Shown here piece after piece: positions 38,075 to 38,626 of a stretch of DNA of 64,000 bases. Numbering within the stretch: the first letter of the stretch is position 1; the number at the start of each line of letters is the position of its first letter. The position numbers and the translations under genes were made by a program. The notes below the pieces were generated by a model. That model ran no database searches. It was not told the origin of the DNA and saw only the letters and a list, made by a program, of their open reading frames with translations. The DNA is from Escherichia phage 92CQ: the sequence record PV682554.1; one strand, 5' to 3'.

Positions 38075-38626
38075 ATGCGGATTACTGATAAGTATGTGTT
38101 CTTCTTTTCAGCAAAAGATGAATTTAGCAACTGGTATCTATCATCTTTTATTGAACCTTTAGCACCCAAGTATAATAATTCTATTACAAGTTCTGTTGAA
38201 TTTACTTGTGTGGAACAATATATGATGTGGAGAAAAGCATGTTTGTTTTATGATTACAACATTGCATCTTCTATTTTAACCGGAGATCTAAGATATACAG
38301 GAGAAAAAGAACAGGCATATTATAAGCGACTAGGTAGATTAGTTAAAGATTACGATGAAGATACTTGGGCTTCTTTACGGGAGAAGATTGTCAAGCGTGG
38401 TTTGTATCTTAAATACACACAAAATGAAGATCTCAAAAATAAACTTATCGCTTACGCAGATAAGGAGTTCGTAGAGGCAAGCCCTTATGATTCTATTTAT
38501 GGTATCAAAATGGGGATGTGGGATCGTGACGTGGAAAATAAGGATTGTTGGAAAGGACAAAATCTTTTAGGAAAATGGCATACAGACCTTGCTGTTTATC
38601 TAAAAGCACAATCTGATATTTCCTGA
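38075..38626 (+). CDS. NADAR-domain protein (YbiA-like)
   Basis: Motifs VFFFSAKDEFSNWY, FTCVEQYMMWRKA and YDSIYGIKMGMWDR...GQNLLGKW parallel the YbiA/NADAR signature blocks. Confidence 0.75.
   Translation: MRITDKYVFFFSAKDEFSNWYLSSFIEPLAPKYNNSITSSVEFTCVEQYMMWRKACLFYDYNIASSILTGDLRYTGEKEQAYYKRLGRLVKDYDEDTWASLREKIVKRGLYLKYTQNEDLKNKLIAYADKEFVEASPYDSIYGIKMGMWDRDVENKDCWKGQNLLGKWHTDLAVYLKAQSDIS

Follow-up and report, generated by a model that had tools for sequence, protein, structure and literature searches.

The gene at positions 38075–38626 (+) of the 64,000-nucleotide stretch of Escherichia phage 92CQ analyzed here (referred to as the window) encodes a NADAR protein of 183 aa. We assign it, with a probability of roughly 0.87, to the AdfN-type 'orphan antitoxins': according to this reading it is a stand-alone NADAR-fold ADP-ribosyl-glycohydrolase by which a lytic phi92-like E. 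coli phage counters the defence system DarTG1. The function itself is already known, since it was published in 2025 for AdfN-Bas60, an orthologue with 98–99% identity. A preliminary description of the window had suggested an anti-DarT role in counter-defence from the sequence alone. This idea is supported, because the window NADAR is 98–99% identical to AdfN-Bas60, for which neutralisation of DarT1 was experimentally tested and found (PMC11825919). A sequence-only reading had here reached a function that bench work established in 2024–2025, namely that phages carry orphan antitoxin-like NADAR enzymes which erase the guanine ADP-ribosylation set by DarT1.

Judged from nucleotide identities, the window is part of a Justusliebigvirus, i.e. 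a phi92-like E. coli phage. A region of approximately 3 kb around the NADAR gene was 99.7% identical to Escherichia phage KKE7M and 95–99% identical to 42 further phage records, among them phi92 and VEcB. KKE7M as well as Bas60, Bas61 and Bas62 are classified as Justusliebigvirus, Stephanstirmvirinae. The NADAR gene shared 100% nucleotide identity with KKE7M and 96–99% with 54 other records. Its orthologues are bas60_0111 (PaulScherrer), bas61_0107 (EmilieFrey), bas62_0106 (JohannJBalmer) and gp223 of phi92. Intact copies were present in 54 of the 55 genus-level records, and in the remaining one the gene was split by the start of the record. An HMM constructed from the homologue alignment was used to search the six frames of Bas60 positions 1–148000 and of the 64-kb window, and each of them contained exactly one NADAR. 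Since bas60_0111 was the sole NADAR in these positions of Bas60, it corresponds to AdfN-Bas60, and the window gene is therefore the orthologue of AdfN-Bas60.

The window protein was 98%, 99% and 99% identical to the NADARs of Bas60, Bas61 and Bas62 and differed from them by three, one and three residues, respectively. The substitutions (window to BASEL proteins) were N62S, D96T, A99T and A178T, none of which is located at a known functional or catalytic position. A99 adjoins the pyrophosphate-binding W98; the BASEL proteins carry a threonine here, which is a conservative change. Against the same three orthologues 6–14 synonymous versus 1–3 non-synonymous differences were counted (dN/dS 0.02–0.12), a pattern indicating that the gene is under purifying selection and kept by selection. 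We infer that the phage needs the gene in nature.

The protein allele of the window is shared by KKE7M and by four records labelled 'Campylobacter phage', namely MG065639, MG065645, MG065656 and MG065689 (A150, A145, C3 and A110a). In these four the gene had 97.8% nucleotide identity to that of the window, and the protein of A150 was 100% identical. The Campylobacter host labels of the four records look doubtful.

According to Johannesman et al. (Nat Commun 2025, PMC11825919) the phages Bas60, Bas61 and Bas62 encode a NADAR which was named AdfN-Bas60. It neutralises the toxicity of DarT1 in uninfected E. coli, and its expression from a plasmid brought the DarTG1-sensitive phages RB69, T5 and Bas25 back to full titre on DarTG1 hosts (PMC11825919). 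T5 received no help from it against DarTG2, a thymine modifier (PMC11825919). The published support for AdfN-Bas60 consists of such ectopic expression, and the main text of that paper contains no native deletion in Bas60–62; an in vitro de-ADP-ribosylation assay and catalytic-dead mutants were published for the AdfN of T4 only (PMC11825919). The window phage and Bas60–62 belong to one genus and carry this gene at a corresponding genomic position, with all catalytic residues of the protein identical. The window allele differs by one to three substitutions, and the phenotype data belong to AdfN-Bas60.

The match of the 183-aa protein to the NADAR family is far beyond chance. Pfam NADAR (PF08719) was matched with E=2.5e-36 and 125.8 bits (curated cut-off 35.1) over profile positions 9–154 of 163, and phrog_1017 with E=4.2e-50. 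The preliminary description had called the domain and named a profile search as a check, and the PF08719 result bears the call out. The NCBIfam model TIGR02464, which describes a riboflavin biosynthesis intermediates N-glycosidase domain, was matched with 110.5 bits at a cut-off of 73.7; a second substrate may thus exist.

An AlphaFold2 model, built on an alignment of 60 homologous sequences, reached a pLDDT of 97.5 and a pTM of 0.91. In a Foldseek search its best PDB match was 8BAU, the structure of PnNADAR with ADP-ribose (E=1.4e-9, TM 0.77). The sole other significant match was E. coli YbiA (2B3W; E=3.3e-6, TM 0.69/0.75). As predicted by this model, the protein has the alpha-helical core of the YbiA/NADAR type.

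In PnNADAR the ADP-ribose is contacted by E43, K50, R79, W89, R93, E125, D130 and W133 (Schuller et al., PMC11543638). Residue equivalences were taken from a phmmer alignment to 8BAU, in which the chain numbering is offset by +2. Opposite these contacts the window protein carries, in the same order, E47, K54, R88, W98, R102, E134, D139 and Y142. Seven of the eight are identical to 8BAU and the eighth is an aromatic exchange, from W133 of PnNADAR to Y142. Among the 60 homologues E47, K54, W98, E134 and D139 were invariant and R88 was nearly so. The E-x6-K motif of the catalytic helix (38213–38236, +) extends from E47 (38213–38215) to K54 (38234–38236) and corresponds to E43/K50 of PnNADAR and E36/K43 of T4 AdfN, the roles of which were described previously (PMC11543638, PMC11825919). 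A second stretch (38474–38491, +) reaches from E134 (38474–38476), the diagnostic catalytic glutamate, to D139 (38489–38491), which are equivalent to E125 and D130 of PnNADAR. The families can be told apart at the position of E125, which is occupied by Glu in the YbiA and 'NADAR' families, by Asp in the DarT1-associated DarG1 and by His in NADARs of T4-like phages (PMC11543638, PMC12945103). With E134 the window protein has Glu at this place, neither Asp nor His. Taken at the residue level, the active site of the window NADAR is intact.

DarT1 attaches ADP-ribose to guanines of phage DNA, whereby replication is blocked, and NADAR enzymes hydrolyse this bond (PMC11543638). Transferred to the window phage, the DarT1 of a host carrying the DarTG1 toxin-antitoxin defence would modify guanines of the phage DNA, and replication would be blocked. 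The NADAR would then bind the ADP-ribose in the helical cleft of its active site and cleave the bond between guanine and ribose by hydrolysis. In this cleft E47 and K54 are predicted to lie on one helix, with R88, W98 and R102 at the pyrophosphate and with E134 and D139 placed at the distal ribose. With the phage DNA restored, the DarTG1 defence would fail and infection could proceed. For the AdfN-Bas60 clade we infer the chemistry of guanine de-ADP-ribosylation from the intact active site together with the rescue in vivo.

Among the solved structures PnNADAR of Phytophthora nicotianae was the best match in sequence (E=2.7e-13) as well as in fold, and it shares the Glu-type catalytic residue. 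It belongs to the 'NADAR family' sensu Schuller et al. 2023 and is a guanine-ADPr hydrolase which is not associated with DarT (PMC11543638). However, PnNADAR is eukaryotic and only 28% identical, carries W133 where the window protein has Y142, and lacks insertions particular to the window protein, e.g. around residues 70–83 and 146–160. A published tree groups AdfN-Bas60 with bacterial NADARs outside both YbiA and DarG1 (PMC11825919).

AdfN-T4 (gp30.3 of T4) is likewise a phage-encoded orphan NADAR directed against DarTG1, and its E36/K43 form the same E-x6-K motif as E47/K54 of the window protein. Pairwise similarity was nevertheless undetectable (BLASTP of gp30.3 against the window protein, E=2), and a profile alignment recovered the E-x6-K motif alone, with His123 of T4 opposite E134. 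Moreover, AdfN-T4 depends on the context of a T-even infection; unlike AdfN-Bas60, it does not rescue cells in the absence of phage (PMC11825919). The T4 AdfN and the NADAR of the window type were probably acquired independently. Membership of the window protein in the T4-type (gp30.3-like) clade was rejected on the basis of the BLASTP result and of Glu instead of His at the position equivalent to E125.

The antitoxin DarG1 (BC4488 family) agrees with the window NADAR in its fold and in the lesion that is reversed, and both proteins neutralise DarT1 without the need to bind it. DarG1 differs by Asp at the diagnostic position, where the window NADAR has Glu134, and by an N-terminal DNA-binding (beta-beta-alpha) extension. 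This extension is missing in the window NADAR, since its catalytic Glu is residue 47 compared to residue 88 in DarG1 of E. coli C7. AdfN is defined as a stand-alone phage NADAR without an adjacent toxin. In the window the two genes upstream of the NADAR gene had no match to an ADP-ribosyltransferase (ART) or DarT model, and no gene follows on the same strand, so that no darT was found beside it. A PADLOC search gave no DarG match for the protein either. We therefore rejected an assignment to the DarG1/BC4488 antitoxins, for which adjacent darT1, Asp, the N-terminal extension and the PADLOC match are all lacking.

E. coli YbiA (2B3W) has the core fold in common with the window protein (Foldseek E=3.3e-6), as well as an active site of the Glu type, but the sequence similarity of the two was marginal (phmmer E=0.034). 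Furthermore, YbiA gave no protection against DarT1 in vivo (PMC11125620), whereas AdfN-Bas60 does protect. The term 'YbiA-like' used in the preliminary description is thus appropriate for fold and active-site type but not for the sequence, by which PnNADAR (E=2.7e-13) is much closer than YbiA (E=0.034).

The role of the window NADAR could be wider than the one proposed here. It is conceivable, though we consider it rather unlikely, that the protein is a broad nucleic-acid de-ADP-ribosylase with anti-DarT1 action as one activity among several, and that its main targets are other ADP-ribosyltransferase defences or toxins, e.g. those producing C- or RNA-linked ADP-ribose or NADAR-containing candidate systems. 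In vitro, members of the Glu-type NADAR and YbiA families strip ADP-ribose linked to G as well as to C, both from DNA and from RNA, while the Asp-type DarG1 and the His-type T4 NADAR remove G-ADPr only (PMC12945103, 2026). The window protein has the Glu (E134), in contrast to T4 AdfN and DarG1, and removal of C- and RNA-linked ADP-ribose is therefore possible. However, a change from Glu to Asp abolished all activity and did not switch specificity (PMC12945103), so the Glu by itself does not predict the substrate range. In addition, C-ADPr has been demonstrated for the Streptomyces enzymes ScARP and Scabin only, and no defence system which makes C-ADPr is known. The best match in a defence library was not DarG but the NADAR component of the candidate system PDC-M42C (E=1.7e-34). 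Its score of 117 bits did not exceed the 126 bits of the generic Pfam NADAR model and so does not indicate a specific relationship to PDC-M42C. Wider targets were also a speculation of Johannesman et al. themselves (PMC11825919). A general eraser of nucleic-acid ADP-ribosylation, which would include cytidine- and RNA-linked forms and protect against ART defences beyond DarTG1, some of them undiscovered, is accordingly put forward here with much reserve.

Two readings without a nucleic-acid substrate can be weighed against the anti-DarT1 role. We regard it as very improbable that the protein is a YbiA-type housekeeping N-glycosidase which destroys reactive intermediates of the riboflavin pathway. 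The score for TIGR02464 (110.5 bits against 73.7) and the YbiA fold with its Glu-type active site would suit such an enzyme, and several GenBank records bear labels that follow this idea ('YbiA-like N-glycosidase', 'GTP cyclohydrolase II'). By sequence, though, the protein is only marginally similar to E. coli YbiA (E=0.034) and far more so to the guanine de-ADP-ribosylase PnNADAR (2.7e-13). The five genes upstream on the same strand had no match to a family of the riboflavin pathway, and no riboflavin gene is among the CDS annotated in this stretch of related phages. The near-identical AdfN-Bas60 has a demonstrated anti-DarT1 phenotype, and published phylogeny places it outside the YbiA group (PMC11825919). 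Just as little can be said for an action in the NAD+/ADP-ribose metabolism of the phage, e.g. on small molecules derived from free ADP-ribose beside NAD+-salvage genes and not on DNA. Homologues with 42–43% identity do lie near NMNAT-like or NAPRTase-family (NAMPT-like) genes on phage-like contigs of 310–455 kb, and at other places the Bas60 genome has genes for a NAMPT, a PRPP synthetase, a sirtuin and a macrodomain protein. Within the genus, however, the NADAR gene is not adjacent to these genes (the NAMPT of Bas60 is ~62 kb away), and the rescue from DarT1 speaks directly for a nucleic acid as the substrate (PMC11825919).

The NADAR gene lies directly downstream of two genes on the same strand. 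An AAA-type ATPase of 375 aa (35883–37010, +) was identified by Pfam AAA (E=1.5e-9) and phrog_2376 'ATPase' (E=6.6e-108). It is followed by a putative endonuclease of 329 aa with CapR repeats and a GIY-YIG-related T5orf172 domain (37085–38074, +; Pfam CapR E=6e-25, T5orf172 E=2.1e-4, phrog_681 'endonuclease' E=2.5e-67). The arrangement noted earlier, with an AAA ATPase, a T5orf172-like protein and the NADAR at the end of the run, was correct; both Pfam matches are found upstream on the plus strand. The order of ATPase, CapR/T5orf172 and NADAR is conserved in Justusliebigvirus including Bas60, Bas61 and Bas62. Phage EF1-1, the NADAR of which is 59% identical, keeps the order with two extra small genes. 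Around the NADARs of one Demerecviridae phage and of two jumbo-phage-like metagenomic contigs (310–455 kb) it was absent. These homologues of other phage groups have unrelated neighbours, and the ATPase and T5orf172 genes therefore cannot serve as evidence for function; in this respect the preliminary description, which had taken them as support for an anti-DarT role, was not confirmed. A functional link between the NADAR and its two neighbours was rejected, as their order is conserved within Stephanstirmvirinae but was absent around these three NADARs of other phage groups. Phages which are otherwise nearly identical differ in the CapR/T5orf172 gene by entire N-terminal modules of CapR-like zinc-ribbon repeats, with protein lengths of 329 aa in the window, 325 aa in Bas61, 390 aa in Bas62 and 467 aa in Bas60.

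The NADAR ORF starts with ATG and comprises 183 codons on the plus strand, exactly at the coordinates reported before. A Shine-Dalgarno sequence, AAGGAG (38063–38068, +), can be read from the sequence 6 nt before the ATG and still belongs to the last codons of the CapR/T5orf172 gene. No nucleotide separates the TAA stop codon (38072–38074) of the latter gene from the ATG, and this arrangement (TAA-ATG) suggests translational coupling of both genes. The NADAR gene is probably co-transcribed with the genes upstream. It is the last gene of the co-directional series on the plus strand, and ~815 nt of AT-rich non-coding DNA come after it. A scan of 38627–39371 for intrinsic terminators found none, so that the term 'end of operon' rests on the gene orientation and the long AT-rich gap. 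Scans 3' of the gene revealed no tRNA and, in Rfam, nothing relevant (a single chance miRNA match, E=0.31).

In GenBank the NADAR gene of phi92-like phages currently bears many labels, among them 'hypothetical protein', 'GTP cyclohydrolase II', 'DNA methyltransferase' and 'YbiA-like N-glycosidase'. The TIGR02464 match accounts for the labels 'GTP cyclohydrolase II' and 'N-glycosidase', which are misleading. As a replacement we suggest 'AdfN, anti-DarT1 NADAR ADP-ribosylglycohydrolase'. Phage therapy candidates of the genus are predicted from this gene to be insensitive to E. coli with DarTG1. A modest remaining value lies in the necessity of the native gene, in how wide a range of substrates the Glu-type phage clade accepts, and in why, in contrast to T4 AdfN, this clade needs no helper factors.

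The non-coding DNA 3' of the NADAR gene showed several features of its own. Within 38825–39045 three direct repeats of ~67–75 nt were present, which are 70–72% identical and share TTATTTAAAGTTTTT...GAAAATGAAAAGTTCAA. This stretch has 23–28% GC, and no ORF, Rfam match or tRNA was found in it. The repeats may represent iterons or multiple copies of a promoter or regulatory module. Overlapping palindromes (ATGATAATCATTCTCATTT / AAATGAGAATCATTATCAT) are clustered at 39065–39180, also non-coding, and resemble Fur boxes of E. coli, the 19-mer consensus of which we take to be GATAATGATAATCATTATC. With up to 3 mismatches to GATAATGATAATCATTATC, the window contained four matches at three sites compared to 0.03 expected; the other sites are 49640–49658 and 50531–50549. 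These Fur-like palindromes may point to an iron- or Fur-responsive regulation, or to titration of Fur by the phage. Next to them a GC-rich island (39190–39750) has 45–52% GC versus 23–40% around it, a composition which suggests foreign origin. The island contains a minus-strand ORF of 88 aa (39441–39707), annotated as hypothetical in related phages and followed by a terminator-like hairpin (39433–39415).

Other loci of the genus and of more distant phages also contain genes related to NAD+ or ADP-ribose. A sirtuin-family protein (62933–63742, −) shares 98% identity with bas60_0185; its gene lies ~25 kb downstream of that for the NADAR. Together with the NAMPT and the PRPP synthetase of Bas60 this indicates that the genus carries several NAD+/ADP-ribose-related genes. 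Where the window is contiguous (24564/24565), Bas60 has an additional block of ~15.9 kb (bas60_0051–0077). A putative macrodomain protein is encoded there, alongside a phosphoribosyltransferase, a HAD-like protein and an anaerobic NTP reductase. In the 64-kb window no homologue of this macrodomain protein, a possible anti-DarTG2 partner, was found. The Bas60 macrodomain might be an anti-DarTG2-type factor which is variably present in the genus. In the 42–43% identity class, one NADAR homologue directly follows an NMNAT-like (CTP_transf_like) gene; GIY-YIG endonucleases and an Apyc1-like gene are present on the same contig. A second one is located ~4 kb from a NAPRTase-family (NAMPT-like) gene on a phage-like metagenomic contig.
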